A stretch of DNA of 64,000 nt from an uncultured virus (IMG/VR IMGVR_UViG_3300042402_007133) (lineage: Duplodnaviria; Heunggongvirae; Uroviricota; Caudoviricetes). Numbering within the stretch: the first letter of the stretch is position 1; every line of letters starts with the position of its first letter. Both the position numbers and the translations under genes were made by a program. The notes under the pieces were generated by a model that saw only the letters and a program-made list of their open reading frames with translations, did not search any database and was not told the DNA's origin. The DNA lies in IMG/VR virus record IMGVR_UViG_3300042402_007133; one strand, written 5' to 3'. Below, in pieces: positions 25,326 through 59,455 of this stretch.

Positions 25326-25683
25326 ATCTAGGTTTGATCACTTGATCAACGTGTTTATGCAACTTTTTTAGAGAGTCATCATCTACCAAGAAGTACTTCT
25401 TTATCTCTATGTCCATGGAAGGAAGTGCTTTTTTTATGTTTTTGATGGTTTCCAAAGAGATGGACGGGTTTATGTAGTAGATGCAGGTCTTTCTCTTCTT
25501 TATGGCAAACTCAAACTCCTCCTGAAGAACGAGGTTCATCAGATAAACAGACGTGTTTACCAATCCATCTGGGCCTTTGTTCTTTATCTTAAGAAGAAGC
25601 TTGTTTACATCAATGATGTATGGCTTTGATCCAGATGCATACTTTGGAAGGTTGACCTTCTCTTTTGAAAAGACAAAATTCAT
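25324..25683 (-). CDS. Hypothetical protein
   Basis: 119 aa ORF with a 4-nt overlap to the upstream gene. Confidence 0.55.
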   Translation of the reverse strand: MNFVFSKEKVNLPKYASGSKPYIIDVNKLLLKIKNKGPDGLVNTSVYLMNLVLQEEFEFAIKKRKTCIYYINPSISLETIKNIKKALPSMDIEIKKYFLVDDDSLKKLHKHVDQVIKPR

Positions 25684-26090
25684 GACTTTAGCTTTTTCAT
25701 AGAGATCTTATCCTGGATCTCTATGTTCCTTTCAATTATGCTGCTAACACTCTCTTCTGAATATCCTCTTTCAACAAGGAAGGAAGCAGTGGATTCATTT
25801 GACTTATCCAGGAACTCTCTTGAATGACGTATGACATCTTCTGTGTTTGAAGTGTGCAGCTGCTTACCATTTTGGATGTTGTTCCTAACATTTTCAAACC
25901 AGTCCTTGTAACCCAGGCGGTTCTTTAATTTTACATAGCCGCTCTGCTTCAGCATTGCACGCCTGAGCTTCCTGTTAAAGTTGATGTTTGGTATTGGGCC
26001 AAGTCCATCACTAAGATTTACTTCTTGAGCTGACACACCCTGTGTTTGTTCTTCTGATGTCTGTTCTGGCTGTTGATTTTCTTCTATCAC
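25680..26090 (-). CDS. Hypothetical protein
   Basis: 136 aa ORF in a coupled operon, basic NRKLRR patch. Confidence 0.6.
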   Translation of the reverse strand: MIEENQQPEQTSEEQTQGVSAQEVNLSDGLGPIPNINFNRKLRRAMLKQSGYVKLKNRLGYKDWFENVRNNIQNGKQLHTSNTEDVIRHSREFLDKSNESTASFLVERGYSEESVSSIIERNIEIQDKISMKKLKS

Positions 26091-26686
26091 TTCTCTCCTC
26101 CGTAAAATTTTGTTATGCTCTGTTTCATTGAAGTCTTTAGTGTGTCCTGATCAATGGAATCGATTATTATATCTATCACTTCATTGACCGTTGATTCGTC
26201 AAATGTTTCATTTATCATATTAAAGAATGCAGATGTCGGCATCTCAAGCTTTATGTCCAGTGTTATGTTTGTATCATTCTTTTTTGCACGTGTTAAAAGA
26301 TCTGTTGCAAAGCTCGAATGCTTATTCTGCCTCTGCCTCTCTCTTTGAGCGGGTGGATCTGCACCAGCAGAAGAAGGATCAAACCCAAGTATGCTGGCAT
26401 GATCGGCCTGCACAGGAGATTCAGCTGATCGGTTCTGCCTTTGCTCAGCTTTCCTGTTCTGTTTTGCTGCTGGCTTTGGATACATGACATCAAGATCGAG
26501 TTGTTTCAGTGCAGCACCTGCTGATGGAAGTATTATGAAATCCTTTCCGACATTTGCCATTGGCACCTTTCGGCCTCCAGAGAGGATGGCAACGTCCTCA
26601 AACGTCTGTCCATCTTGCATCATCTCTGCAGTTTCAACTTCTCCTCGTTTAGGGCCTGTGATCCATTGAAGGTATTGGTTATTCAT
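26087..26686 (-). CDS. Hypothetical protein
   Basis: 199 aa ORF in a coupled operon. Confidence 0.6.
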   Translation of the reverse strand: MNNQYLQWITGPKRGEVETAEMMQDGQTFEDVAILSGGRKVPMANVGKDFIILPSAGAALKQLDLDVMYPKPAAKQNRKAEQRQNRSAESPVQADHASILGFDPSSAGADPPAQRERQRQNKHSSFATDLLTRAKKNDTNITLDIKLEMPTSAFFNMINETFDESTVNEVIDIIIDSIDQDTLKTSMKQSITKFYGGEK

Positions 26687-26990
26687 CGAATAGCTCCACT
26701 ATATTTTCCTTGTAAAATTTCATTCTGTCCTCTGGCATATCATCCAAGGACTGCGAGACCATAATCTTTAATGATATTAGACTGTCTGAAAAAAAATCAG
26801 CAACACCTCTCCTTGAAACCAGGTCTGAGTTTGATCTGAAGTTTTTTTCAATGCCATTGATTCTCCAGAAGACGAATGGATAAGAATCTATGAAGTGTAT
26901 TCTAAGTTCTTTCCACCCTGCTGGTTTTATGTCAACCTCTTCTGCATTTTTCCAGTCAAGGTCATCTTCCATATTGTAATTTATGGACAT
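26679..26990 (-). CDS. Hypothetical protein
   Basis: 103 aa ORF overlapping both neighbours. Confidence 0.5.
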   Translation of the reverse strand: MSINYNMEDDLDWKNAEEVDIKPAGWKELRIHFIDSYPFVFWRINGIEKNFRSNSDLVSRRGVADFFSDSLISLKIMVSQSLDDMPEDRMKFYKENIVELFDE

Positions 26991-27685
26991 CTGTCGATTC
27001 CTCCTATTGTCTTTGGCCAGAAGACATCCTTCTCAAGCCCCATCAGCTTTATGACGTGATCAAGCTCTTGATCTGCATTCAGGCCATTGGGAAGAACCCA
27101 ATATTGGCTCTCGATCGGCTTTACATGTCTTGCCTGAACATCGTCAATAATTGCAAGCCTTTCATAGTTTAGATCCCTTGCCCAAAGAAAGTCCTGTGCC
27201 CATCCAGAGTATGTTATGGTAAAAGTTCCAAGAACCTTCTTGAGCGCTTCTGTCTTAAACAGAGGGCACATGATCTCAACATAGTTTGTGTACCTCATGA
27301 ACTTCATTGGGTCATTTAGGACCAATGGAAAACTATGATAGCTATCATGCGTAAGAGATGGCTGACATACGTTTAGGTTATAGTCCTGTGCTATCCTAAA
27401 AAGCCTTTCTATATCATCTGCTTCAAGATGAACATCATAGTCTGGCATCCATATCCAATCGTATTGATCAAGTATGTCATACTTCTCGATGAACCTCTTG
27501 TATATGTGATGCTTGAATCCCTTATCATTAACATAATACTTTGCTGATCCATGCACCCAAGGACCGTCATTCCACTCATCAGGTTTGAAATTTATGAGTG
27601 CAAGATCAAAGCCAGAATTTTTTAGGTTCTTACTGTTATAGAACCCATCCTTTGCAGTAGTTGCTATGACAAGGTTTCTGTTCAC
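26981..27685 (-). CDS. DUF707-like glycosyltransferase-fold protein
   Basis: YDWIWMPDYDV (DxD), CQPSLTHDSY, TNYVEIMCPLF, SGWAQDFLW and AIIDDVQARH match DUF707 family motifs. Confidence 0.75.
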   Translation of the reverse strand: MNRNLVIATTAKDGFYNSKNLKNSGFDLALINFKPDEWNDGPWVHGSAKYYVNDKGFKHHIYKRFIEKYDILDQYDWIWMPDYDVHLEADDIERLFRIAQDYNLNVCQPSLTHDSYHSFPLVLNDPMKFMRYTNYVEIMCPLFKTEALKKVLGTFTITYSGWAQDFLWARDLNYERLAIIDDVQARHVKPIESQYWVLPNGLNADQELDHVIKLMGLEKDVFWPKTIGGIDRCP

Positions 27686-27918
27686 TGCTGAGGAGCCTCT
27701 TGTTCTTCTTGGGCTGAAGCATTAACAGCCTCAACAGACCTGTCAGGCCTAAAGAACACTATTGCATCATAGATGATCTTTGCTTCTTGCATTGTGTATG
27801 CACCAAGCCTTTGTGCATGCTCTGCTGCATTGACAAGCACATTGATTGCCTTTGCTGGATCATCAATAACGTAAGCAGGAGTCTGCTGACGCTCTTGTGG
27901 GGTTTCGTTGTTTTCCAT
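27682..27918 (-). CDS. Small hypothetical protein
   Basis: 78 aa, coupled to the hydroxymethylase (1-nt overlap) and the DUF707 gene (4-nt overlap). Confidence 0.6.
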   Translation of the reverse strand: MENNETPQERQQTPAYVIDDPAKAINVLVNAAEHAQRLGAYTMQEAKIIYDAIVFFRPDRSVEAVNASAQEEQEAPQQ

Positions 27919-28778
27919 TATTCCTCTACAAAAAATTTGTGAAATATGTCTATGTAGTCGTATGTGTTGAACACTGAAAAGTCATTTACCTGTTCCATGT
28001 AGTCAACGAATTCAATTGCGCTTTTGCTCATGCCAGATTCTGATGAATCAAATATTGGCCGTGTCATTCTTAGCTCAATTTCATTTTCTGGGTTTACATC
28101 TTCTAGTCTTAGCTTCTCAACAAGAGAGAAGTGCCTCTCGTAGTAGTGTGTGTTGTCTGAGCAGTGGTAGTATGTTCCAATCCCAAGATCTTGGTACTTT
28201 GACTTCAGTTCAAGGTACATTGATTGGTAGACAACAGAGAAGAAAGGTGCATCGTACTGAAGGCCATAGAATATGTCGTTAGATCTCATCTGGACCTTCA
28301 TGTTCAACTTGTTGTCTCTTATCCAAAAATTGACATACATTGTGCAGACAAAGTCCTTGACGCCTTCATTTTGATATGCTGGTGTGTTGAACACCATTAT
28401 TGCCTGTCTTGTTGACTTGTCCTTCAGAAGGGCATTTAACGCCCATTTGAACTGGTTGTGCTGCCTTGAGAGCATGACATAGCCGTAATTGGAATTGACT
28501 CTATCATCAACTGTTAGTGTCTTCCAAAAGCTTGAGAAGTTGTTTATCTTATCAATTGTGGTCTCTTGGGAAAGATACCACCAGAGCTCACCAACAAAGT
28601 ACTTCCAGTTGAATGCTTTGCTGTCAAAGTTCATCATTGGGTACAGGGGATTGAATTCAAGCGTTGTCAGGTAGTCCTCAACAACCTTTAACCCTCTTGG
28701 TGAATCCTCTCTGTCCATTCTTGATAAGAGGTTCAAAACTTCACTGTTTATGGTCTTTGTCATAGGTACTTTATACAC
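27918..28778 (-). CDS. gp42: Thymidylate-synthase-family dCMP hydroxymethylase (T4 gp42-like)
   Basis: VNSNYG, DFVCT (catalytic Cys), MRSNDIFYGLQYD and HYYERHF. Asp replaces the Asn found at this position in dUMP-specific ThyA. Closely parallels T4 gp42 (INSNYG, DFMCT, MRSNDVVFGFRND, HVYSRHF, recalled from memory). Confidence 0.85.
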   Translation of the reverse strand: MYKVPMTKTINSEVLNLLSRMDREDSPRGLKVVEDYLTTLEFNPLYPMMNFDSKAFNWKYFVGELWWYLSQETTIDKINNFSSFWKTLTVDDRVNSNYGYVMLSRQHNQFKWALNALLKDKSTRQAIMVFNTPAYQNEGVKDFVCTMYVNFWIRDNKLNMKVQMRSNDIFYGLQYDAPFFSVVYQSMYLELKSKYQDLGIGTYYHCSDNTHYYERHFSLVEKLRLEDVNPENEIELRMTRPIFDSSESGMSKSAIEFVDYMEQVNDFSVFNTYDYIDIFHKFFVEE

Positions 28779-28780
28779 AA

Positions 28781-29860
28781 TTAAGGGGCATCAGTTACAT
28801 CCAAAAAGAGCACAGTCGTCTTCATCTTCCTCATCTTCTGTCCTGTCTCAAAGTCGTATTGGTATGAAGATCTTGAAAGATGAACGGATCCTGGCTTTTC
28901 CATACACTGATCTGCATACTGCTTAGGATCCATTGAATACCATTCAGAAGGCCATGATATGACATCGTACCCGTACTCTGCTGAAAGATCATCAAGCATC
29001 CTGTTGAACTCTGCAACCGCTTCTGACCTCTGCTGCCTTGTTCCAAAGAAAGGAGATCCCTTGTACCATCCTGTCTTTGGGATCCTTCTCTCTTCGTGTT
29101 CTATTGGAAGAAGGCTCACAAGTCCAACGTAATCCATTCCATGCGCCTCCTTTAGTTCCCTTGCAAACTCAATGTAACGTTTTACAAGGCTTCTTAGAGA
29201 TCCCATGGGGTCTTCCTGCCTGAATATGTGATGTCGTACATCAATGTTTCCCATGTAAAGGATTATCTCCTTTGTTCCTTCTGGGAACACAAATGAATCC
29301 TTCTTTTTGAGAAATCCGTGGAGCGTCTGGCCATCGTTTCTGCTTATGTTTGCGCCAGGAACATACACGGACACAGAATGACTGTCTCCGTATATGAACA
29401 TCTCGTCCCTTAGAACAAGATCTATCCGTTCTATGGATCTTGATATGCTTGTGTATTCTTCTGGGTCAAGAAGCTTCCAGTCATCGCATGCAGCATTCAT
29501 CCTTGACCTTATGAACGCACCAATGTCTGGCATGTCCTGGTTTAGTATGAATATCTCTCCTTGAAAGTCTGCAAGCCTCTTTATCCTTGCCGCTGTCTCT
29601 TCATTTGCGCCCCCAAAAAGATTGAAGGTCCCCTGAAACTCCATCGGAAGGGATATGAACCAGACATCATACTTTGATACGTCACTGTTCTTTGAAAGCA
29701 CATCTGCATGAAGCCCAACATGTCGAAGCTGTGCGCTTAACAGGTAGGGCCATGAAGACTTGTGTGATTCCTTCTTTGCACTATAGGATGTGACTACATC
29801 ATCGATCGCTATTCGCTTTCCATGAAGGCGGTCTGCAACATCATATATCGATAGGGGCAT
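28781..29860 (-). CDS. Two-domain protein with C-terminal SGNH/GDSL hydrolase-acyltransferase fold
   Basis: Block-I-like IYGDSH, block-II-like RNDG, block-III-like LYMGNIDVRHH and C-terminal SVHLS (His). N-terminal domain (SHKSSW, FNLFGG) not recognised. Confidence 0.6.
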   Translation of the reverse strand: MPLSIYDVADRLHGKRIAIDDVVTSYSAKKESHKSSWPYLLSAQLRHVGLHADVLSKNSDVSKYDVWFISLPMEFQGTFNLFGGANEETAARIKRLADFQGEIFILNQDMPDIGAFIRSRMNAACDDWKLLDPEEYTSISRSIERIDLVLRDEMFIYGDSHSVSVYVPGANISRNDGQTLHGFLKKKDSFVFPEGTKEIILYMGNIDVRHHIFRQEDPMGSLRSLVKRYIEFARELKEAHGMDYVGLVSLLPIEHEERRIPKTGWYKGSPFFGTRQQRSEAVAEFNRMLDDLSAEYGYDVISWPSEWYSMDPKQYADQCMEKPGSVHLSRSSYQYDFETGQKMRKMKTTVLFLDVTDAP

Positions 29861-30127
29861 TTATGACCTCTCGTTTATGTAGTTCTCCAATCCCTGTAGG
29901 TATGCAACAGCATCCAAGAGGTTGTCTCTCTTATGTTGGTAGCTCTCACGTGATAGCTTGAGTGCAACAAGAGCCTTAAACATGTGCTCAGCACCCAAAT
30001 TGAGGCCTGTCATTCCATTGAATATCATGGCAGCGCGTTCCATTCCTTCGCTGAACGGGCCATACTGGCGGTCTGATTCTTCTGACCTGTTGTTTACTAT
30101 TTCTTCTGCTTGTGTTAATATGCTCAT
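29861..30127 (-). CDS. DUF6378-like small all-alpha protein (possible nucleotide pyrophosphatase-associated)
   Basis: ILTQAEEIVNNR...RQYGP...LVALKLSRE...KRDNLLDAVAY is the DUF6378 pattern. Confidence 0.75.
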   Translation of the reverse strand: MSILTQAEEIVNNRSEESDRQYGPFSEGMERAAMIFNGMTGLNLGAEHMFKALVALKLSRESYQHKRDNLLDAVAYLQGLENYINERS

Positions 30128-30157
30128 GTCAATTCTATCCTAGTTCTTTTTCTGATG

Positions 30158-30589
30158 TTATCCGTTGTATCCATTTTCGTTTATCCACTGTAGGTATTTC
30201 TTCAATTCCTTGTCCTCTACCGTTATGGAAAATATTCCCTGTTGAAATATCTTCCACGAATCAGATGCATATTTTCCTACGCCCGGAAGTGATTCAACAT
30301 TTGATCCGTCCCAATTCAGCCACTCATGTGAGAACTTCTTCCACATCTTGGCCCTTCTGTTGTAGAACCCAAGAGGGCGTATTATGTCTATTATCTCCTG
30401 GTCTGATGCGCCCAATAGGTCTTCGGGGGTTGGAAACTTCTTAAAAAACTCATCCCTTACCTTATCGACCTGTTTGTAACAGGTCTGATTTAGCATCATG
30501 CATATCATTAGCATCTTCCAAGGATCGTGCTTATAGATCTCTTGGCGATACCTAAATGGACTCATTGGAGGCTGTCTGGTTTTTTTCAT
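30158..30589 (-). CDS. MBD4-like HhH-GPD DNA glycosylase (stand-alone catalytic domain)
   Basis: HDPWKMLMICMMLNQT, RPLGFYNRRAK, LPGVGKYASDSWKIF and EDKELKKYLQW parallel the MBD4 glycosylase domain. No Fe-S cluster cysteines. The start may be the second Met (MSPF). Confidence 0.85.
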   Translation of the reverse strand: MKKTRQPPMSPFRYRQEIYKHDPWKMLMICMMLNQTCYKQVDKVRDEFFKKFPTPEDLLGASDQEIIDIIRPLGFYNRRAKMWKKFSHEWLNWDGSNVESLPGVGKYASDSWKIFQQGIFSITVEDKELKKYLQWINENGYNG

Positions 30590-30595
30590 GAGGCT

Positions 30596-30604
30596 AATAT
30601 ATAG
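30596..30604 (+). promoter_or_regulatory. Putative late promoter motif AATATATAG
   Basis: Oriented on the + strand, 14 nt upstream of the + strand gene pair starting at 30619. Confidence 0.55.
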
Positions 30605-30618
30605 AAAAACTCTATTTC

Positions 30619-30930
30619 GTGAAAACCTTTTTAGAGATCAATGCAATAAATGAATCAAAGGAAGGATACCAGGCTTTGAAGGAGCTGAACAAGGTCCATA
30701 AGCTTGAGTTAGAGCTCCAGGAGATCCAAAGAGAAGTCATTGAGCTCTTTGATAAGGCCGGCAAGTATAAGATCGATAGCAAGGAAAGAAAGCAAGCAGA
30801 AGAAAAGATAGCCAAATTTCTTAAAGAGAGGGACGAGATCATAAAGGAGATGGATTACGAAAAGAGAAACCTCAGAAGGGCTCTTAACTCCATCGACACG
30901 GAAGGCGACCTAGATAGATTTTTTGAATAA
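30619..30930 (+). CDS. Hypothetical charged coiled-coil protein, possible head-internal protein
   Basis: 103 aa, GTG start, N-terminus MKTFLEINAINES. Confidence 0.65.
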   Translation: MKTFLEINAINESKEGYQALKELNKVHKLELELQEIQREVIELFDKAGKYKIDSKERKQAEEKIAKFLKERDEIIKEMDYEKRNLRRALNSIDTEGDLDRFFE

Positions 30931-30943
30931 AAAAACATTTGAT

Positions 30944-31465
30944 ATGCCAGCAAAATCACAGCAACAACAGAAGATAATGGGTCTAGCCCTTTCTTACAAA
31001 AGAGGAGAAGTTCCAGCGTCTGAAGTTAGCGACAAGGTAAAAGAACTTGCAAAGTCCATGACATTGAAAGAGCTTGAAGAGTATGCATCAACAAAGCATA
31101 AGGGGCTTCCAAAGAAGGTAAAGGAATCAAGGCTTGCAACATTTGAGCAATTCATGATGGAAAAGGACGATGAGATGGAAACCGAGATTGAAGATGAAAT
31201 GGAATTTGGCCCAGAAGGCGAAGAGGAGATAGTACATGTCACATCCCATTCGCCAATGAGATCAACAGGATCTGACGCACCAGAGGCACATGAGCCAGAG
31301 TCAAAGATGATACAGTATCAGCTCAAGAACATCATTGAGAATGCAGAAGAGCTCATCCAGATGGTAGAAGGTCATGACAGCATAGAAGATTGGATACAAA
31401 GCAAAGTCACACTTGCAGATGATTACCTTTCAACCCTCAGAGATTACATGAAACATAGGGCATAA
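30944..31465 (+). CDS. DUF3008-domain protein with acidic C-terminal region
   Basis: MPAKSQQQQKIMGLALSYKRGE...AKSMTLKELEEYASTKHKGLP matches DUF3008. ATG 30944 is preferred over TTG 30923. Confidence 0.75.
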   Translation: MPAKSQQQQKIMGLALSYKRGEVPASEVSDKVKELAKSMTLKELEEYASTKHKGLPKKVKESRLATFEQFMMEKDDEMETEIEDEMEFGPEGEEEIVHVTSHSPMRSTGSDAPEAHEPESKMIQYQLKNIIENAEELIQMVEGHDSIEDWIQSKVTLADDYLSTLRDYMKHRA

Positions 31466-31487
31466 AAAGGGACATATCATTAAACTT

Positions 31488-31514
31488 AAAGGGAACCAAA
31501 CGGTTCCCTTTTTT
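31488..31514 (+). terminator. Intrinsic terminator for the + strand gene pair
   Basis: aaagggaacc-aaac-ggttcccttt hairpin followed by a T run. Confidence 0.8.
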
Positions 31515-31545
31515 ATTTGTGCCCCTTCTTCCTCCCATTACAAAT

Positions 31546-31576
31546 AAAAAACCCCCCTGGAGAACCAGAGGGGTTT
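31546..31576 (-). terminator. Intrinsic terminator downstream of the major capsid gene
   Basis: Minus strand reads aaacccctctgg-ttct-ccaggggggttt followed by a T run. Confidence 0.8.
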
Positions 31577-31600
31577 AATTTACATCTAGATTTGTCTAGA

Positions 31601-33421
31601 TTAGACGATGCCTGCTGTTGGTGTTTCAACCCAGAATGCATAGTACTGTGCTTCAGGATAGAAGCCAGCCTCAACAAGAGCGTAACGGCTCTTGACAGCA
31701 ATCTTAGGTGACATTGTGCCTTCAGCGATCGTGCTGATAGATTCAGCCATGAGGTATGGCATGAACTTGATACCTGGCTCGATGTCTGCACCCTTACGGC
31801 CAACGAGAACGCGTGTGTCATTCCATGTCATGTTTGGATCAACATATACTGTCATTCCAAACAGTGTGCCTGCTGGGTACAGCTGACCGCTTGACTGATT
31901 GAGCGTGTTATCGAATGGAGCAAGCGAGAATCCCTTAACGATGTTAAGAGCTGACAGAACTTGTGCGTTCGTTACGATGAAGTTTCCTGGGCCACGACGT
32001 CCACGTGTGTGGATGAGGTTTGATGCCGCATGGATCTTGCTGACGATGCGCTGTTGTGCTGTCGAGAGGTTCTCGAAGTTTCCGTAGTTTGCATACGCTG
32101 GAATGTTGTTTGTCCATGTAAGTGCAGCGTTTGTCTTGCCGATGTATGAAGATGACGTTGCTGATGTCGTTTGAGTTGGGTCAAGCGAGATGTTCAGCGT
32201 GAAGCCTTGTGTCTGATATACATCGTAGTTGTTCTGCCATCCAAGAGCAAATGCGCGTGAAAGGATGTGCTTGTTGATTGACTGAGAAACCTCATTAACA
32301 AGAACACCTTCTGCCATTGCAAGGATGTCAATACCAAACTGGCGGTTCATGTCCTGGATCTGCTCAGTTGTTACGCTGATTGTCACCTGGAATGTTCCAG
32401 CTTGTACGTTCTTTGTGAACGTTTGGATGCCCATTGCGCGTGGGTAGGTTTCTTCACCAGTTCCCCTGCTCATTGGATCGTATGCCTTTGTGCCATCTGT
32501 GAATGGTCCGTTCCAAGTGTTTGTGTCGTTTGCACCTGCACCGGAGAAGCCATAGATGTGGTTCTCAAGAGCTGAAACGTAACCTGGGCGGAATGGGCTA
32601 GCTGTTGTGCCGTTTGCTGAAGCATATGCTTCATCATTTGCTGTATTTGTGCTAGCTTCACCAAGGATAGATGAGAACGTGTTGCCAGAACCAACGTCAA
32701 AAACTTGAGCGATAGTTACTGTGTTTGTGCTTGCGCCTGCTGTGTAAGCACCGCTTGATGCAATGTTACCAGTTGATGTAACGCGGAAGATAAGATCGCC
32801 GGTCACAAATGACTTACCAACATAGATGAGTTTTGCAGCGGATTCAGCAGCAAGAGTTACAGAGTAACCAGTTCCGCTAGCTGTGTCTGCTGCGGCCTGA
32901 AGTGGTGCAGCATAGTATGTTGAACCAACTGTTGGATCTTCGTATACGGATGTAGCAGCAACGCTGATCATCAGCGGCTGTGTTGCGTTTGAGTCAGTTG
33001 TTCCATCAAGATCAACCTTACCGCCTGCATAGATGTAGTCAAGGTAAGGAAGGATGCCTGTTGGACCTGGCATTGGGATAACAGAAACGATGTCGAAACC
33101 AACCGTCTTTGCTGCAACCTGGATTGCAAGCGGAAGAAGCGATGGGAACTTATCACCTGATCCTTGGTACGATGTGTTGTAGAAGTTAGCAGGTGTCGTC
33201 ATTGCTGTACCCATGTTAACTGGTCCTTGACCAGGAACATTGATAAGCTGTGCAAGGCCTGTGCCTTGGAAAGATTCGTTTACGAAGCTTTCGTTCATCT
33301 GATGATAGTGGCAGTACTTTGACATCCAGTTCTTCTTGTAGCCGTCCTTAACGCCTACTGACTCGAGCATTGGTGTCCACTCATTGATGATCTGTGCTTC
33401 ATTCAAAAGCTGTAGATTCAT
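31601..33421 (-). CDS. gp23: Major capsid protein (T4 gp23-like, HK97 fold) with a large insertion
   Basis: DIVSVIPMPGPTG, TTEQIQDM..QFGID, NEVSQSINKHIL, RGRRGPGNFIV, AGTLFGMTVYVDP, FMPY and PKIAVKSRYAL. Codon usage looks like that of a highly expressed gene. Confidence 0.93.
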   Translation of the reverse strand: MNLQLLNEAQIINEWTPMLESVGVKDGYKKNWMSKYCHYHQMNESFVNESFQGTGLAQLINVPGQGPVNMGTAMTTPANFYNTSYQGSGDKFPSLLPLAIQVAAKTVGFDIVSVIPMPGPTGILPYLDYIYAGGKVDLDGTTDSNATQPLMISVAATSVYEDPTVGSTYYAAPLQAAADTASGTGYSVTLAAESAAKLIYVGKSFVTGDLIFRVTSTGNIASSGAYTAGASTNTVTIAQVFDVGSGNTFSSILGEASTNTANDEAYASANGTTASPFRPGYVSALENHIYGFSGAGANDTNTWNGPFTDGTKAYDPMSRGTGEETYPRAMGIQTFTKNVQAGTFQVTISVTTEQIQDMNRQFGIDILAMAEGVLVNEVSQSINKHILSRAFALGWQNNYDVYQTQGFTLNISLDPTQTTSATSSSYIGKTNAALTWTNNIPAYANYGNFENLSTAQQRIVSKIHAASNLIHTRGRRGPGNFIVTNAQVLSALNIVKGFSLAPFDNTLNQSSGQLYPAGTLFGMTVYVDPNMTWNDTRVLVGRKGADIEPGIKFMPYLMAESISTIAEGTMSPKIAVKSRYALVEAGFYPEAQYYAFWVETPTAGIV

Positions 33422-36227: not shown

Positions 36228-36869
36228 TTATATGTGAACTGCTAAAAGCTCAGGAACCTCAACCCATTCAAACATCTTTCCAAGCCTGTCATAGGTATAT
36301 CCATCGTTGTAGTAACCCTGCTCACCTGAGAATGTGTTCCATCTGCATTGGATCATTGCGTCCCTTCTTACAACAACCTGAAGGGTGTCAATATTTTGAA
36401 AGACCGGAGGTATGCCATTTATGACCTGCGGTGCAGGACCAAGATGCTGAGGAAGAGGCCCAAGATGCAGGATTTTGCATATTGAGAATTCCTTATCAGG
36501 GTTTGCTTCCAACGCCTCAACGTTTCTCTCAATGAAGTGCGGAAAGAGCACATTATCATCATCCAAGTGGACAAGATATCTAAGAGAAGGATCTTGCTCT
36601 ATGAAATTCTTAAGGACATACTCTCTGACCCCTCCTCCGTAGGAATTTGTGTTCTCTCCGGTGCATGTATAAACAACATAGGGATCTTCAAGAGACTCAA
36701 CGTATTTCTTTACGTGTTCTTCCTCCGGGCCGTCAGAGCATATTATGTGTAATATCATTCCATCATAGGATTGTGAACCTACTGACAGAACACAACGATC
36801 TATAACGTTTACATCTCTCTTATATGTTGGGGTTATTATTGCAACCTTTGGTAGCTGTGGGTTTCTCAT
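36228..36869 (-). CDS. Glycosyltransferase family 2 (GT-A)
   Basis: VAIITPTYKR, HIICSDG and YLVHLDDDN. Confidence 0.85.
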   Translation of the reverse strand: MRNPQLPKVAIITPTYKRDVNVIDRCVLSVGSQSYDGMILHIICSDGPEEEHVKKYVESLEDPYVVYTCTGENTNSYGGGVREYVLKNFIEQDPSLRYLVHLDDDNVLFPHFIERNVEALEANPDKEFSICKILHLGPLPQHLGPAPQVINGIPPVFQNIDTLQVVVRRDAMIQCRWNTFSGEQGYYNDGYTYDRLGKMFEWVEVPELLAVHI

Positions 36870-37381
36870 TGCTTCTTTATGATCGTTAATAATTCTTCTA
36901 TGTTTCCATCCCTGTTTTCTAGAACCATGTCATAGTCAGAAAATCCAGAAAATGTCTTATTGTCTGCGGAGATCCTGCTCATTATTTTACCAATGGAGTC
37001 CCCTCTTTCAAATGCCCTTTTTATCCTCTCGTGCAATGGTGCAGTAAGCTGTATCACAACACAGCCTGACAGTAGACCTGAATCTTTCAGCTTTCTTACT
37101 GCCTTTGGCGTCAAAATAAAGACATCGTATCTTTGGAAATCCTCATTTGATGTTCCATAGTAGTCCTCAAATGCATCATCATACTCAAAGAAAAAACCAG
37201 ATTCAATGAGTTCTACAAACCTCTCCTTTGAGATGAATCTATAATCGGTTCCCTCAATTTCACCAGGTCTCATGCTTCTTGTTGTGTACGAAACACCGGG
37301 CAAAAAGCCCTGCTCAACAAGCATCTGTTTTATCGTTGTTTTACCGGAGCATGATGCGCCACATAGAATTACTTTTCTCAT
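36866..37381 (-). CDS. gmk: Guanylate kinase-like nucleoside monophosphate kinase
   Basis: P-loop GASCSGKT, SYTTRSMRPGEIEGTDYRFIS and YYGT are guanylate kinase motifs. Substrate not established. Confidence 0.85.
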   Translation of the reverse strand: MRKVILCGASCSGKTTIKQMLVEQGFLPGVSYTTRSMRPGEIEGTDYRFISKERFVELIESGFFFEYDDAFEDYYGTSNEDFQRYDVFILTPKAVRKLKDSGLLSGCVVIQLTAPLHERIKRAFERGDSIGKIMSRISADNKTFSGFSDYDMVLENRDGNIEELLTIIKKQ

Positions 37382-44344: not shown

Positions 44345-45955
44345 TTATGATGTTAGTATAGAGAACATGGATGTTGAGCTTTCGTATATCACCAATGTCC
44401 TATTTGCCGCAAGAGATGTTGATGAACCAGAATTTACTGTTACAGTAAATGAGTTTCCACCCGTGTTTGCTATTGTATACACATAAGCTTCTCCTGAAGG
44501 AGGATTGCTAGAAAGTGTATAGTCAACGGTATAGCCAGAAGAATTTGCCCCATAGAAGAGAACTTCATTTGCATTGTTTGAATCAAGGACATATGTTGTT
44601 GATCCTGATATTGATACTGGACCTACTGCTTGATATACTGGTTTTGTTGGACATGGACATGTTCCGGTTGGACCTTCAGTTCCCTGAGGGCCTTGTGCCC
44701 CTTGTGCCCCTTGGGCACCTTGCGCTCCTTGAGTTCCTTGTGTTCCTTGTGTTCCCTGGGCACCTTGCGCTCCTTGAGTTCCCTGGGCACCTTGCGCTCC
44801 TTGAGTTCCTTGGTTTCCTTGTGTTCCCTGGGCACCTTGCGCTCCTTGAGTTCCCTGGGCACCTTGCGCTCCTTGAGTTCCTTGGTTTCCTTGCACCCCT
44901 TGAACGCCTTGATTTCCCTGGGAACCTTGTGCTCCTTGAGTTCCTTGAACACCTTGATTACCTTGCCTTCCTTGTAAACCTTGAAGACCCTGGGGTCCTG
45001 TAAAACTAGATGCATCTCCAGCCGGGCCAGTTGGTCCAAAATTTCCTTGTGCACCTTGTGCACCCTGATTTCCTTGAAGACCCTGAATACCTTGTAGACC
45101 CTGAAGCCCCTGTAAACCTTGAAGTCCCTGGGCTCCCTGATTTCCTTGAAGGCCTTGATATCCTCTAACTCCTATTGATCCTTGTATTCCTTGAAACCCT
45201 ACATCTCCTTGAAGGCCCTGAAGGCCCTGAAATCCCTGAAGGCCCTGTATTCCCAGTGATCCAGAAGACCCTGGAGGCCCAGCAGGTCCTACACTTCCCT
45301 GTGATCCTTGTGCTCCTGCCTGTCCAGTTGGACCTGTTGGGCCTGTTGGGCCTCCAGCAGGACCAGTAGGACCCTGCGGTCCTGCGCCGCCGCCTGCACC
45401 AAATGGACCTTCATATGTGTATGCTGTTATGTAAAGGTCTCCAAGAGTTCCAGTTACACCAACCCCACTTGGAAGATCGCCATAAAAAGTTACTACGCCA
45501 GAATAATGATTGACCACCCATTCTCCAAGACCAAATGGTATCTCTATGAATGTTGATCCGTCTTTGTAGTAAAGCGATACTTCATACTCAGGACCAAACA
45601 TGTTAAAGTCCATTATGTTAAGGACTGGTTCTGATGTATTTTTGAATGCATAGTTTGATCCCATCTCGTATGCAAGCGGATGGTAGACCCACTTCTTTAT
45701 GGCCCATGGTCCTGTTGCACTTGAGTAAACATAAGAAGTTCCTGTTATGGCACCAGTTCCTGTTGGGTACAATGGATTGTAACCGGTTGGGCCTGATGTA
45801 GGAATCTGTTTTGCATTAGTCCAGATGTTTTCTGGAAAAATTATCAGATCTGATTGGTTTGATTCCTCAAACGGCAAAAGCCTCGTGTTTGTTGAAACCT
45901 TTGAGGCATTAAGCTGTTTGTACGAGAGGTCGCTCTTTTCTTCTGGTGTTAGCAT
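44345..45955 (-). CDS. Collagen-like (Gly-X-Y) fibre protein
   Basis: 536 aa with a roughly 240-residue G-X-Y tract (GPT, GAQ, GLQ, GTQ, GNQ) followed by CPCP and a small C-terminal beta domain. Confidence 0.9.
   Translation of the reverse strand: MLTPEEKSDLSYKQLNASKVSTNTRLLPFEESNQSDLIIFPENIWTNAKQIPTSGPTGYNPLYPTGTGAITGTSYVYSSATGPWAIKKWVYHPLAYEMGSNYAFKNTSEPVLNIMDFNMFGPEYEVSLYYKDGSTFIEIPFGLGEWVVNHYSGVVTFYGDLPSGVGVTGTLGDLYITAYTYEGPFGAGGGAGPQGPTGPAGGPTGPTGPTGQAGAQGSQGSVGPAGPPGSSGSLGIQGLQGFQGLQGLQGDVGFQGIQGSIGVRGYQGLQGNQGAQGLQGLQGLQGLQGIQGLQGNQGAQGAQGNFGPTGPAGDASSFTGPQGLQGLQGRQGNQGVQGTQGAQGSQGNQGVQGVQGNQGTQGAQGAQGTQGAQGAQGTQGNQGTQGAQGAQGTQGAQGAQGTQGTQGTQGAQGAQGAQGAQGPQGTEGPTGTCPCPTKPVYQAVGPVSISGSTTYVLDSNNANEVLFYGANSSGYTVDYTLSSNPPSGEAYVYTIANTGGNSFTVTVNSGSSTSLAANRTLVIYESSTSMFSILTS
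44663..45382 (-). repeat. Collagen-coding 9-nt-period repeat containing an exact 72-nt tandem duplication and five copies of a 25-nt core
   Basis: The 72-nt units start at 44745 and 44817. The core gggcaccttgcgctccttgagttcc occurs at about 44713, 44758, 44785, 44830 and 44857. Confidence 0.9.
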
Positions 45956-58340: not shown

Positions 58341-58983
58341 ATACCTTCTTTAGCCTTTTTTGAAGGATCTTTCTTCCTTTATGGATGTAAACCTTCAATG
58401 TGTTAAGGTTCAAATCATACTTATTTGCAAGATCAATGTATGACATTTCATTGACCTCACGATCCCACAATATCTCCTTATACTTTGGATTTAGGTTTTT
58501 GATCTCCTCGAGTATTACCTTTGTTAGGTTCTCAGAGTGGTCAAAGTCTATATTATCATAGTTTGGATTATGCACATAATCATCAATACATTCCTTTAGT
58601 ATCTTTGATAAGTGAAGGTCTCCAACATAATCTGAGTCAGACTGTGAATTTTTCCATCCATTCATCGTCATCATTGAAGTTTCTTTAAGCTTCTTAGACT
58701 TTGCAATCTTTTTTAACGCCTCATTCTTTGCTATGGTATAAGACCATGTTGAAAAGTTCCAGTAGCTGTTATACTGATGGATGTTCATGTATATCTTTAT
58801 CATGCTGTTTGATACGCAATCATCGATATCATCCTGGCTAAAATTAGGAGCCTTAAGATAGCCAGATACAAACCTCTTCAGTCTAGGAGAAAGAATGTGG
58901 TAAACCTCGGTAAAGCTTTCTTCTGTTTTAAGGTTGAAGAACACCTCTCCAAGCTCTTGCAGATTCTTACTTTTTCTTTTCAC
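58318..58983 (-). CDS. RNA polymerase sigma factor, sigma-70 ECF-like
   Basis: Region 2 DDCVSNSMIKIY...FSTWSYTIAKN and region 4 LNPKYKEIL...MSYIDLA...NTLKVYIHKGRKIL. Confidence 0.88.
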   Translation of the reverse strand: MKRKSKNLQELGEVFFNLKTEESFTEVYHILSPRLKRFVSGYLKAPNFSQDDIDDCVSNSMIKIYMNIHQYNSYWNFSTWSYTIAKNEALKKIAKSKKLKETSMMTMNGWKNSQSDSDYVGDLHLSKILKECIDDYVHNPNYDNIDFDHSENLTKVILEEIKNLNPKYKEILWDREVNEMSYIDLANKYDLNLNTLKVYIHKGRKILQKRLKKVYEEWKNS

Positions 58984-59455
58984 GATAGTCCCTTAGGATT
59001 GTTTCATAATTGTTTTTTAGCACTTCAAAGTCACCGTTGACAATGCCAACCTCATCCAAAATGGATAGGTGATCTGTCATCCTATATTCTTGCTTCCAAA
59101 ATACGTATCTAAAGCCAGAATTGATAATAAGTTTCATACAAATTTCGCATGGCGAATGTGTTAATAAAACCATGTAGTTCTCGGGGTCTGATTCATGAAA
59201 CTTTGCCACAAGGTTCATCTCCGCGTGAACAAAGCCAGAATGCCCAGATGTCAAAGACTCTTCTTCTCCTCCTGTTTCTGGATTTGTGCCGGCTCCTGTA
59301 TAGGATCCGTTGTATCCAAAGCTTCCTATCTTTGAAAAATCTACCTTAACTGCCATTGCCCCAACTTTTAAGGTCTGCGATACCGAAAGCTGGGAAATCT
59401 GCGAGACAAAGTCTGTGAAGACCTCTATCTTTTTTATCTTTCTTTGATTCTGCAT
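58967..59455 (-). CDS. cd: dCMP deaminase (cytidine/deoxycytidylate deaminase family)
   Basis: KVGA, GYNG, HAEMN and THSPCEIC zinc motifs. Confidence 0.88.
   Translation of the reverse strand: MQNQRKIKKIEVFTDFVSQISQLSVSQTLKVGAMAVKVDFSKIGSFGYNGSYTGAGTNPETGGEEESLTSGHSGFVHAEMNLVAKFHESDPENYMVLLTHSPCEICMKLIINSGFRYVFWKQEYRMTDHLSILDEVGIVNGDFEVLKNNYETILRDYREKKK

Follow-up and report, generated by a model that had tools for sequence, protein, structure and literature searches.

A 64,000-nucleotide stretch of DNA from an uncultured tailed virus (IMG/VR record IMGVR_UViG_3300042402_007133; hereafter, the window) carries a block of six genes at 26981-30589, encoding an MBD4-like DNA glycosylase, a small DUF6378 protein, a hybrid enzyme that joins a domain related to the N-terminal domain of T4 beta-glucosyltransferase (BGT) to an SGNH-fold domain, a thymidylate synthase (TS) homologue, a 78-amino-acid open reading frame (ORF) and a DUF707 protein. 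On balance, we lean towards reading this block as a cassette with which an uncultured jumbo myovirus of fresh water replaces and decorates its cytosine; in it, the TS homologue would make the precursor of 5-hydroxymethylcytosine (5hmC) and the hybrid would decorate the base in DNA. The original prediction, made from the window alone, had proposed a cytosine hypermodification-and-repair cassette; this outline holds in part, the dCTP-removing role assigned to DUF6378 being the piece that found no support. Its description of six tightly packed, co-oriented genes was accurate: all six ORFs are on the minus strand, with successive gaps of 30, 0, 2, -1 and -4 nt, and the upstream edge of the cassette is a short divergent intergenic region (30590-30618). 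The window is part of a large tailed phage, and a Pfam scan of it identified baseplate and tail sheath proteins, a prohead protease and a major capsid protein of the gp23 type. Seventeen studies contributed the 20 metagenome runs, from lakes or fresh water, in which the cassette was detected. It is also present in a 260 kb IMG/VR relative estimated to be 88% complete (G002). A megablast search with the cassette found nothing among cultured phages.

The TS homologue is best read, from its residues, as a 5-hydroxymethyl-dCMP (hm-dCMP) synthase and not as a producer of methyl- or 5-hydroxy-dCMP, because three aspartates fit published residue rules and the T4 enzyme is its best match. In a search of PDB sequences, its closest solved relative was T4 deoxycytidylate hydroxymethylase (E 6.6e-19); the CMP hydroxymethylase MilA followed at 6e-11, and no true thymidylate synthase scored better than 1e-9 (E. 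coli TS, 1e-7). Cys145 is invariant in the alignment and aligns with the catalytic Cys of the FMCT of the T4 enzyme. The Asp on which the original prediction had relied (RSND...G...D) is present: the motif MRSNDIFYGLQYD ends in Asp176, which corresponds to position 177 of E. coli ThyA and aligns with the FRND of T4. Asp142, three residues before the Cys in KDFVC, occupies ThyA position 143, where T4 and Aeromonas phage 44RR have DFMC, and Asp168 of R165-S166-N-D168 retains ThyA Asp169. The same three-Asp signature is found in gp42 of T4 and 44RR, whereas the TS homologue of Xanthomonas phage Xp12, the classic 5-methylcytosine phage, shares the Asp at 177 but aligns an Asn with position 143. 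According to the sections of PMC13326640 (2026) on ThyA-numbered residues, N177D confers dCMP specificity (section 24), an acidic residue at L143 (L143D/E) goes with a hydroxymethyl product, and D169N marks the 5-hydroxy-dCMP synthases of RB69 and DLP3 (section 28). Both 5hmC and 5-methylcytosine had been proposed as the replacing base; the Asp at the L143 position and the T4 match favour the former.

The hybrid belongs to a family of 323 protein clusters, all annotated as hypothetical and none with a precomputed Pfam assignment, and at least 569 IMG/VR stretches carry a member. The proposed SGNH fold of its C-terminal part is well supported by structure prediction despite a sub-threshold Pfam match. 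In the AlphaFold2 model (pLDDT 91, pTM 0.89), residues 151-352 adopt a predicted three-layer alpha/beta/alpha SGNH fold. Foldseek matched the model to SGNH proteins in the PDB (probability 1.0, E 2e-5), and VIA-align gave a Z of 13.8 (root-mean-square deviation (rmsd) 4.1, 181 residues aligned) against SGNH structures, with a second match over model residues 151-350 at Z 13.5 (rmsd 3.2, 170 aligned). The structural matches include acyl-CoA thioesterase TesA as well as two O-acetyltransferases, PatB and OatA. Three segments are invariant in an alignment of 39 family sequences, G158-D-S160-H161, G204-N205-x-D207 and H327, and they supply the block I Ser160 (GDS), the block III Asn205 (GxND) and the block V His327, the blocks being assigned by motif and not by superposition. 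Pfam Lipase_GDSL matched 16 of the 39 family members at E up to 10 (best E 1.3e-4), and the hybrid-family hidden Markov model (HMM) searched against PDB sequences returned chance matches only (uS15, E 0.02).

The N-terminal part is related to BGT at the level of profiles. With hhalign, the hybrid family matched T4 BGT alone at 34% probability (E 4e-4), a two-type BGT alignment at 72%, and a five-member BGT alignment (members 41-100% identical) at 92.9% (E 3.8e-7) over its full length and 94.8% (E 5.1e-8) with the N-domain only; 20 column-shuffled controls reached at most 1.1%. Residues 15-108 of the window hybrid pair with BGT 1-99 from the first strand onwards, NLFGG being matched to NFFGG. 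Pfam PF09198 (BGT) matched just one of the 39 family members (E 0.19), and the ESM Atlas gave no usable match for this domain. The C-terminal UDP-glucose-binding Rossmann domain of BGT is absent, as the hhalign match stops at BGT 99 and residues 151-352 are SGNH. On these comparisons, the hybrid is not a member of the BGT family (GT-B, PF09198), the N-terminal Rossmann-like domain alone being common to both. In GT-B enzymes, the N-terminal domain mainly holds the acceptor and the C-terminal domain the nucleotide-sugar. Given these roles and the BGT-like nature of its N-domain, the hybrid appears to keep the DNA- or 5hmC-facing half of BGT, with the donor half replaced by a Ser/His centre. The earlier statement that no T4 glucosyltransferase is recognisable in the window is thus half true: the N-terminus of the 359-amino-acid protein is homologous to the T4 BGT N-domain, and two GT2 glycosyltransferase genes lie elsewhere in the window.

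The hybrid was found in 43 cultured-phage records (38 of Aeromonas, 2 of Stenotrophomonas and 3 of Tenacibaculum phages), and 18 of the 19 best hybrid records are also among the 40 best-listed records for the TS homologue, where it is annotated as gp42. All three cultured genomes tested contained a match to the TS homologue, strong in 44RR and 25 and weak in PTm5 (E 8e-5). In 44RR, the hybrid forms the N-terminal 335 residues of a 795-amino-acid protein, which over its C-terminal 420 residues shares 41% identity (E 3e-100) with a free-standing protein of metagenomic hybrid clusters that has an HMUDK_hel domain, a helical domain of the 5-hmdU DNA kinase type. This fusion and the BGT-like N-domain support the proposal that the SGNH protein decorates cytosine in DNA. 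A search for longer fusions returned one protein of 685 amino acids, the extra part of which is not HMUDK_hel-like by BLASTP, and no fusion with DUF6378 was present among the 120 best near-length hybrid matches. Directly upstream of the fusion in 44RR2.8t (L001, 4420-8400) is a sodium:solute symporter homologue (SSF, E 6e-53), and in Aeromonas phage 25 (L100, 2764-6035) a UDP-galactopyranose mutase (GLF, E 5e-54) and a 358-amino-acid protein precede a free-standing hybrid. Petrov et al. (2010, PMC2993671) describe genes 42 and 56 but no glucosyltransferase in the T4-like phages 44RR, 31 and 25, and leave open what modifies 5hmC in these phages.

We surveyed the neighbourhood of the hybrid in 80 related loci, many of them truncated, and typed the downstream genes in the 50 with at least 4.5 kb of downstream sequence. 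DUF6378 was encoded within 1.3 kb upstream of the hybrid and on the same strand in 76 of the 80, while the other cassette members were rarely adjacent (TS homologue in 6, glycosylase in 6, DUF707 in 3 and the 78-amino-acid ORF in 3). Downstream, 27 of the 50 loci carry an inositol-1-phosphate-synthase-like gene, typically with genes for a small HAD-like protein, an FkbM methyltransferase, an HMUDK_hel-domain protein and a nucleoside triphosphate (NTP) pyrophosphohydrolase; examples are L012 (7099-11155) and L075 (4415-10798), with 25 further loci of this type. Such clusters suggest a cyclitol-type decoration. A cytidylyltransferase gene is present upstream in 17 loci, and 6 loci hold an epimerase gene. 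Another 20 of the 50 encode a protein of about 405 amino acids, mostly with a protein of about 368 amino acids and a pyridoxal-phosphate (PLP)-type enzyme; the two proteins had no Pfam match and no hhalign link to HMUDK_hel or to the Ino1-like family. The remaining 3 loci are of the type of the window, a rarer and distinct architecture with a hydroxymethylase and DUF707 where related loci carry HMUDK_hel-type or other partner genes. No HMUDK_hel/aGPT-Pplase-type protein and no P-loop DNA kinase was found in the window or in its 88%-complete relative. The HMUDK_hel proteins of other hybrid-bearing loci are not P-loop kinases, because they have no Walker A motif.

Linkage to the TS gene was also followed at longer range. 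Among 16 long records that hold the hybrid and DUF6378 (24-88% complete), 5 contain an orthologue of the window TS homologue (44-75% identity, with the same signature where checked), and in 3 of these 5 the gene is 11-155 kb from the pair. The expected co-occurrence of the SGNH and DUF6378 genes with an Asp-type TS gene therefore gives a mixed picture, with adjacency in only 6 of 80 loci and presence elsewhere in the genome in those 3 long records and in 3 of 3 cultured genomes (PTm5 by a weak match). The expected linkage of DUF707 to the dCMP-type TS gene is seen in the lineage of the window and not beyond it. The 234 kb record of locus L032 (G004) carries two TS-family genes (L084, L087): one encodes a canonical TS (433-amino-acid frame, E 6.6e-86), which may be fused to a further domain, and the other a gp42-type hydroxymethylase. 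The hydroxymethylase gene is beside those for a 307-amino-acid protein and a ClpP-like protease and 155 kb from the hybrid cluster.

DUF6378 had been proposed to act as a dCTP-removing pyrophosphatase, a functional analogue of T4 gp56, and this assignment found no support. By hhalign, the probability was 0.4% against a phage NTP pyrophosphohydrolase alignment, against Xp12 gp60 and, with a 136-sequence profile, against PRA-PH domains. The AlphaFold2 model (pLDDT 81) has four helices and no Foldseek match at E 0.001 or better. With VIA-align, it matched MazG 1vmg_A (Z 5.1, rmsd 3.4, 62 aligned) and 2p06_B (Z 5.3, rmsd 3.4, 72 aligned), both inside the noise band (best Z 6.7). The HMM found nothing in the PDB, and the ESM Atlas returned only the family itself. 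An NTP pyrophosphohydrolase or gp56-like dCTPase was thus tried as a candidate function and rejected as unsupported. The 30 longer representatives scanned, out of a family of 1,299 proteins, included fusions to dUTPase (2), a TS homologue (1), PRA-PH/MazG (4), HAD (1), UDG (1) and HTH (2) domains, and distant copies occur in Dhillonvirus coliphages. Since its fusion partners include dUTPase, TS, PRA-PH/MazG, HAD and UDG, DUF6378 does belong to nucleotide or DNA-base metabolism; in our reading, it accompanies enzymes that act on nucleotides and DNA bases, as an accessory or partner domain. It is far more conserved (75-100% identity in the 120 best of 1,299) than the partner hybrid in comparable loci (36-77%).

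The glycosylase has MBD4 glycosylase domains as its best solved relatives (mouse MBD4, 1ngn, E 1.5e-25 over residues 5-139). Its Asp110 aligns with the Asp of the MBD4 motif GNDSY, which we take to be the catalytic residue. At 143 amino acids it consists of the glycosylase domain only and lacks a methyl-CpG-binding domain. Its 13 best cultured-phage matches are all from Xp12-type phages. In Xp12, the gene order is glycosylase, PRA-PH pyrophosphohydrolase, TS homologue, dCMP deaminase and DHFR; the second of these, gp60 (L102, 4908-8417), is annotated as a HAD hydrolase but has a PRA-PH (MazG-like) domain (E 6.6e-15) and is likely the dCTPase of that phage. The recurring pairing of an MBD4-like glycosylase with a C5-modifying TS homologue fits repair of deaminated C5-modified cytosine. 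The glycosylase had been predicted to repair such products, and its Xp12-type relatives, together with its position two genes from the TS homologue in Xp12, strengthen its standing as a companion of C5-modified cytosine DNA.

The DUF707 match (32.1 bits against a cut-off of 24.1) is to a family that is presumably a member of the GT-A clan, and the translation contains D82-Y-D84, a DxD-type motif. A phmmer search of this protein against the PDB gave nothing meaningful. Its relatives are confined to the lineage of the window: the survey of 80 loci gave 3, and further searches gave 6 loci and one phage record. GT-A-fold DNA glycosyltransferases beside TS homologues are documented in a preprint (10.1101/2023.12.21.572611). 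The 78-amino-acid ORF matched nothing in Pfam, PHROG or NCBIfam and is retained, with 48-94% identity, in the corresponding position of 3 related loci.

These observations can be assembled into a five-step scheme. From its signature, the TS homologue would convert dCMP to hm-dCMP, which would be phosphorylated, perhaps by a guanylate-kinase-like protein encoded 7 kb away, and then built into phage DNA. After replication, the hybrid would bind 5hmC in duplex DNA through its BGT-derived domain, as its domain anatomy suggests, and the Ser160/His327 centre with an Asn205 oxyanion hole would stand in place of the UDP-glucose-binding domain. An acyl-enzyme formed from a thioester or ester donor could pass the acyl group to the 5-CH2OH, leaving on 5hmC an ester that would either persist as the mark itself or serve as a leaving group. 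With its gene translationally coupled to that of the hybrid (0-nt gap), DUF6378 may be the small partner subunit of this enzyme, and the GT-A-like DUF707 protein may add a sugar to 5hmC or a 5hmC derivative. By homology and by the Xp12 parallel, the MBD4-like glycosylase would remove 5hmU, T or U opposite G that arises from deaminated modified cytosine. A more specific proposal, possible in our view but short of probable, is that the BGT-N/SGNH hybrid acts as a DNA O-acyltransferase. With DUF6378 as an obligatory subunit, it would esterify the hydroxymethyl group of 5hmC in duplex DNA, and its product would be the first natural base modification of the ester type.

A number of observations weigh against the reading of the block as a cytosine-replacement and decoration cassette. 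The block V Asp (DxxH) is absent from the hybrid, which has Gly324 there in the sequence P323-G-S325-V-H327; Glu321, invariant in the family, is a candidate substitute. Lipase_GDSL matched the hybrid below threshold (E 0.002, 18.8 bits against a cut-off of 23.6 bits). The catalytic Asp100 of BGT has no clearly conserved counterpart, as it pairs with N107 in a global alignment or with D109 in an ungapped extension of the local one, and position 109 is variable in the family. BGT was not among the top 50 structural matches of the whole model in the PDB or BFVD, lists that were full of SGNH proteins, the N-domain not having been folded or searched alone. The TS gene adjoins the SGNH and DUF6378 pair in few of the surveyed loci, and 11 of the 16 long pair-holding records, which are fragments of 27-64% completeness, contain no TS orthologue. 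Neither the window (Pfam scan) nor the 88%-complete relative (phage NTP pyrophosphohydrolase profile, Pfam MazG) yielded a dCTPase-type enzyme, and the latter two profiles found none in G003, a 24% fragment; full replacement of cytosine is therefore not assured. The DUF707 match spans 90 residues only (26-115), the GT-A fold of the protein being putative, and the cassette is surrounded by structural genes, whereas T4 42 and b-gt are early genes. Lastly, the chemistry of every step is one that we infer from sequence and fold assignments.

Other arrangements of the same genes have to be considered. Carbohydrate esterases and O-acetyl enzymes of peptidoglycan or sialate make up most of the structural neighbours of the hybrid, and carbohydrates are the substrates of most SGNH transferases and esterases, which would suit a scheme in which the DUF707 protein glycosylates 5hmC and the hybrid, one step later, O-acetylates or de-acetylates the sugar, recognising the site through its BGT-like domain. 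The sugar-related mutase and the 358-amino-acid protein that precede the hybrid in phage 25, the symporter in 44RR and the existence of GT-A DNA glycosyltransferases (preprint 10.1101/2023.12.21.572611) point the same way. We regard this scheme as rather unlikely, given that DUF707 is absent from 47 of the 50 loci with enough downstream sequence, that sugar genes occur in some loci only (epimerase in 6, cytidylyltransferase in 17), so that a sugar acceptor would not be constant, and that the BGT-like domain would need to take a much bulkier flipped base. Alternatively, the hybrid could only activate 5hmC by means of an ester leaving group, the task of 5-hmdU DNA kinase in other phages, and a different enzyme would substitute the final group. 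The hybrid is indeed the constant member of variable clusters, in which it is fused to or clustered with HMUDK_hel-domain proteins lacking a Walker A motif and is followed in other loci by PLP-enzyme, inositol-phosphate-synthase-like and FkbM genes; the amino-acid:DNA transferase mechanism as described in PMC8989533 requires a leaving group on the 5-methylene. In the window and its 88%-complete relative, with no HMUDK_hel protein, the substituting enzyme would be missing unless the DUF707, 78-amino-acid or HhH protein serves, and the proteins of about 405 and 368 amino acids in the second cluster type have no hhalign link to HMUDK_hel; we consider this activation-only role unlikely.

A role in the nucleotide pool, with DUF6378 and the hybrid removing dCTP or dCMP or handling a nucleotide-linked intermediate while the DNA carries bare 5hmC, receives little credence from us. 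The fusions of DUF6378 to dUTPase, TS, PRA-PH/MazG and HAD domains would accord with it, as would the PRA-PH pyrophosphohydrolase that Xp12 has between its glycosylase and TS homologue and the fact that no other dCTPase candidate was found in the lineage of the window. Against this, DUF6378 showed no detectable homology to NTP pyrophosphohydrolases and coexists with a separate one in 43 related loci, and the BGT-like domain points to DNA. We also know of no SGNH enzyme that acts as a phosphohydrolase. The least probable reading, and a very unlikely one, is that the TS homologue methylates dCMP like its Xp12 counterpart, with 5-methylcytosine in the DNA and a glycosylase that repairs T:G. The closest cultured-phage relatives of the glycosylase are all in Xp12-type phages and the Asp at position 177 is common to both TS homologues, but at the L143 position the window enzyme has Asp, as does T4 gp42, and not the Asn of Xp12, the T4 hydroxymethylase is its best solved match, and 5-methylcytosine would offer no hydroxyl to a BGT-like acceptor domain.

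As a cytosine-decoration cassette, the block can be compared with several known systems. It resembles the T4 5hmC pathway (gp56, gp42, gp1 and alpha- and beta-glucosyltransferases) in its gp42-type signature, in the homology of the hybrid N-domain to BGT and in the position of the decorating-enzyme gene, since T4 b-gt directly adjoins gene 42 and the window hybrid directly adjoins the gene 42 homologue. It differs in that the SGNH Ser/His domain replaces the UDP-glucose-binding domain and that no gp56-like dCTPase was found, and it has the DUF6378 partner, the MBD4-like glycosylase and the DUF707 protein in addition. To our knowledge, all known 5hmC decorations are sugars or a carbamate. The SGNH O-acetyltransferases and thioesterases PatB, OatA (C-domain) and E. 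coli TesA share the fold and the Ser/His/Asn/Gly catalytic set with the hybrid, and enzymes of this type form an acyl-serine intermediate. Their substrates are peptidoglycan, sugars or acyl-CoA, and none of them has a DNA-glucosyltransferase-type domain; the hybrid has no block V Asp. The Xp12 cluster likewise has an MBD4-like glycosylase two genes from a dCMP-specific TS homologue and a dCMP deaminase in the phage, but it includes a PRA-PH pyrophosphohydrolase and DHFR, lacks the hybrid, DUF6378 and DUF707, and its TS homologue has Asn three residues before the Cys.

Thymidine hypermodification, as described in PMC5889632 and PMC8989533 (dUMP hydroxymethylase, 5-hmdU DNA kinase, aGPT-Pplase or amino-acid:DNA transferase, PLP enzymes), also combines a hydroxymethyl-pyrimidine made before replication with chemistry on the 5-CH2OH after it, and relatives of the cassette carry HMUDK_hel-domain and PLP-type genes. 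In the window, the base would be cytosine (Asp-type TS homologue), and there is neither a P-loop kinase nor an HMUDK_hel/aGPT-type gene. The GT-A phage DNA glycosyltransferases of preprint 10.1101/2023.12.21.572611 offer a parallel for a GT-A-like gene beside the gene for an enzyme that makes a hydroxymethyl acceptor; DUF707 is not named in the text of that preprint, and the fold of the window DUF707 protein is putative. An O-acyl-type (carbamate) precedent on phage 5hmC is 5-carbamoyloxymethylcytosine (MetaGPA, PMC8670742), which is made by a carbamoyltransferase and not by an SGNH/BGT hybrid; the main text of that paper does not mention DUF707, DUF6378, GDSL or SGNH. A literature search with supplements outside its scope found no description of a BGT-N/SGNH hybrid, of an acyl-5hmC base or of acyloxymethylcytosine, carbamoyloxymethylcytosine (PMC8670742) being the sole cytosine-related match, and no link of DUF6378, DUF707 or SGNH plus hypermodification to DNA modification.

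Table 1. Features of the window discussed in the text, with the evidence for each or its context (aa, amino acids).
Feature	Position	Strand	Evidence or context
MBD4-like HhH-GPD DNA glycosylase, 143 aa	30158..30589	-	Pfam HhH-GPD E 1.8e-11; MBD4 PDB relatives
DUF6378 small four-helix protein, 88 aa	29861..30127	-	Pfam E 2.4e-9; AlphaFold2 model
Hybrid enzyme (359 aa, 28781-29860), BGT-N-like N-terminal domain, residues 1-150	29411..29860	-	hhalign
Hybrid enzyme, C-terminal SGNH-fold domain, residues 151-359	28781..29410	-	invariant residues, AlphaFold2, Foldseek, VIA-align
Predicted T4 gp42-type dCMP hydroxymethylase (TS homologue), 286 aa	27918..28778	-	Pfam Thymidylat_synt E 1.4e-18; signature residues
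78-aa ORF	27682..27918	-	start overlaps hydroxymethylase stop
DUF707 protein, 234 aa, putative GT-A-like glycosyltransferase	26981..27685	-	Pfam DUF707 E 9.2e-8
Guanylate-kinase-like nucleotide kinase, 171 aa	36866-37381	-	Pfam Guanylate_kin E 1.1e-19; NCBIfam
GT2 glycosyltransferase, 213 aa	36228-36869	-	Pfam Glycos_transf_2 E 3e-7; NCBIfam
Second GT2 glycosyltransferase, 411 aa	17700-18935		amid tail/baseplate genes
Amidoligase_2-domain protein, 447 aa	10088-11431		amid tail/baseplate genes
dCMP deaminase homologue, possible pool enzyme as T4 cd	58967..59455	-	Pfam dCMP_cyt_deam_1 E 5.8e-11

Beyond the cassette, the window contains further genes that may be connected with it (Table 1). The guanylate-kinase-like gene overlaps the start of the adjoining GT2 gene by 4 nt (36228-37381), both lying outside the cassette, and the two could encode an hm-dCMP kinase and a glycosyltransferase acting on DNA or on the capsid. 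In RB69, DLP3 and RL38J1, a nucleotide kinase is likewise located beside DNA glycosyltransferases (Table 1 of PMC13326640). The dCMP deaminase homologue may be linked to the cassette through the nucleotide pool, and amidoligase genes are mentioned near thymidine hypermodification clusters in PMC8989533. A scan for promoters and terminators over 25500-31700 was at chance level (11 promoter-like sites against 13.4 expected, 5 terminator-like sites against 4.9), and no terminator was predicted between the 3' end of the cassette and the downstream baseplate genes. Two strong convergent terminator-like hairpins (stems of 10-12 bp followed by T runs) are located at 31488-31576, with a DUF3008 gene (plus strand) on one side and the major capsid gene on the other. 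The window also encodes two proteins that are probably fibre or receptor-binding proteins: a 536-amino-acid collagen-repeat protein (44345-45955; Collagen E 1e-34) and a 696-amino-acid BNR/YCF48-like repeat protein (2-2089) that runs off the window end.

Hypermodifications of phage DNA decide escape from restriction, CRISPR and glycosylase defences and are a source of epigenetic-sequencing tools. The joining of the DNA-facing half of BGT to a serine esterase or acyltransferase centre implies an undescribed chemistry on DNA. If the hybrid is indeed a DNA O-acyltransferase, the ester would be the final anti-restriction mark in the kinase-less and transferase-less cassette of the window, or a phosphate-free leaving group in related phages, and the hybrid would explain the decoration of 5hmC in Aeromonas phages 44RR, 31 and 25, a question open since these phages were found to lack glucosyltransferases. 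Existing isolates allow a bench test of the prediction, since some cultured Aeromonas phages have the hybrid together with gene 42 and no glucosyltransferase. Finally, the recurrence of an MBD4-like glycosylase with C5-modifying TS homologues suggests that phages whose cytosine is fully substituted encode a deamination repair function of their own.

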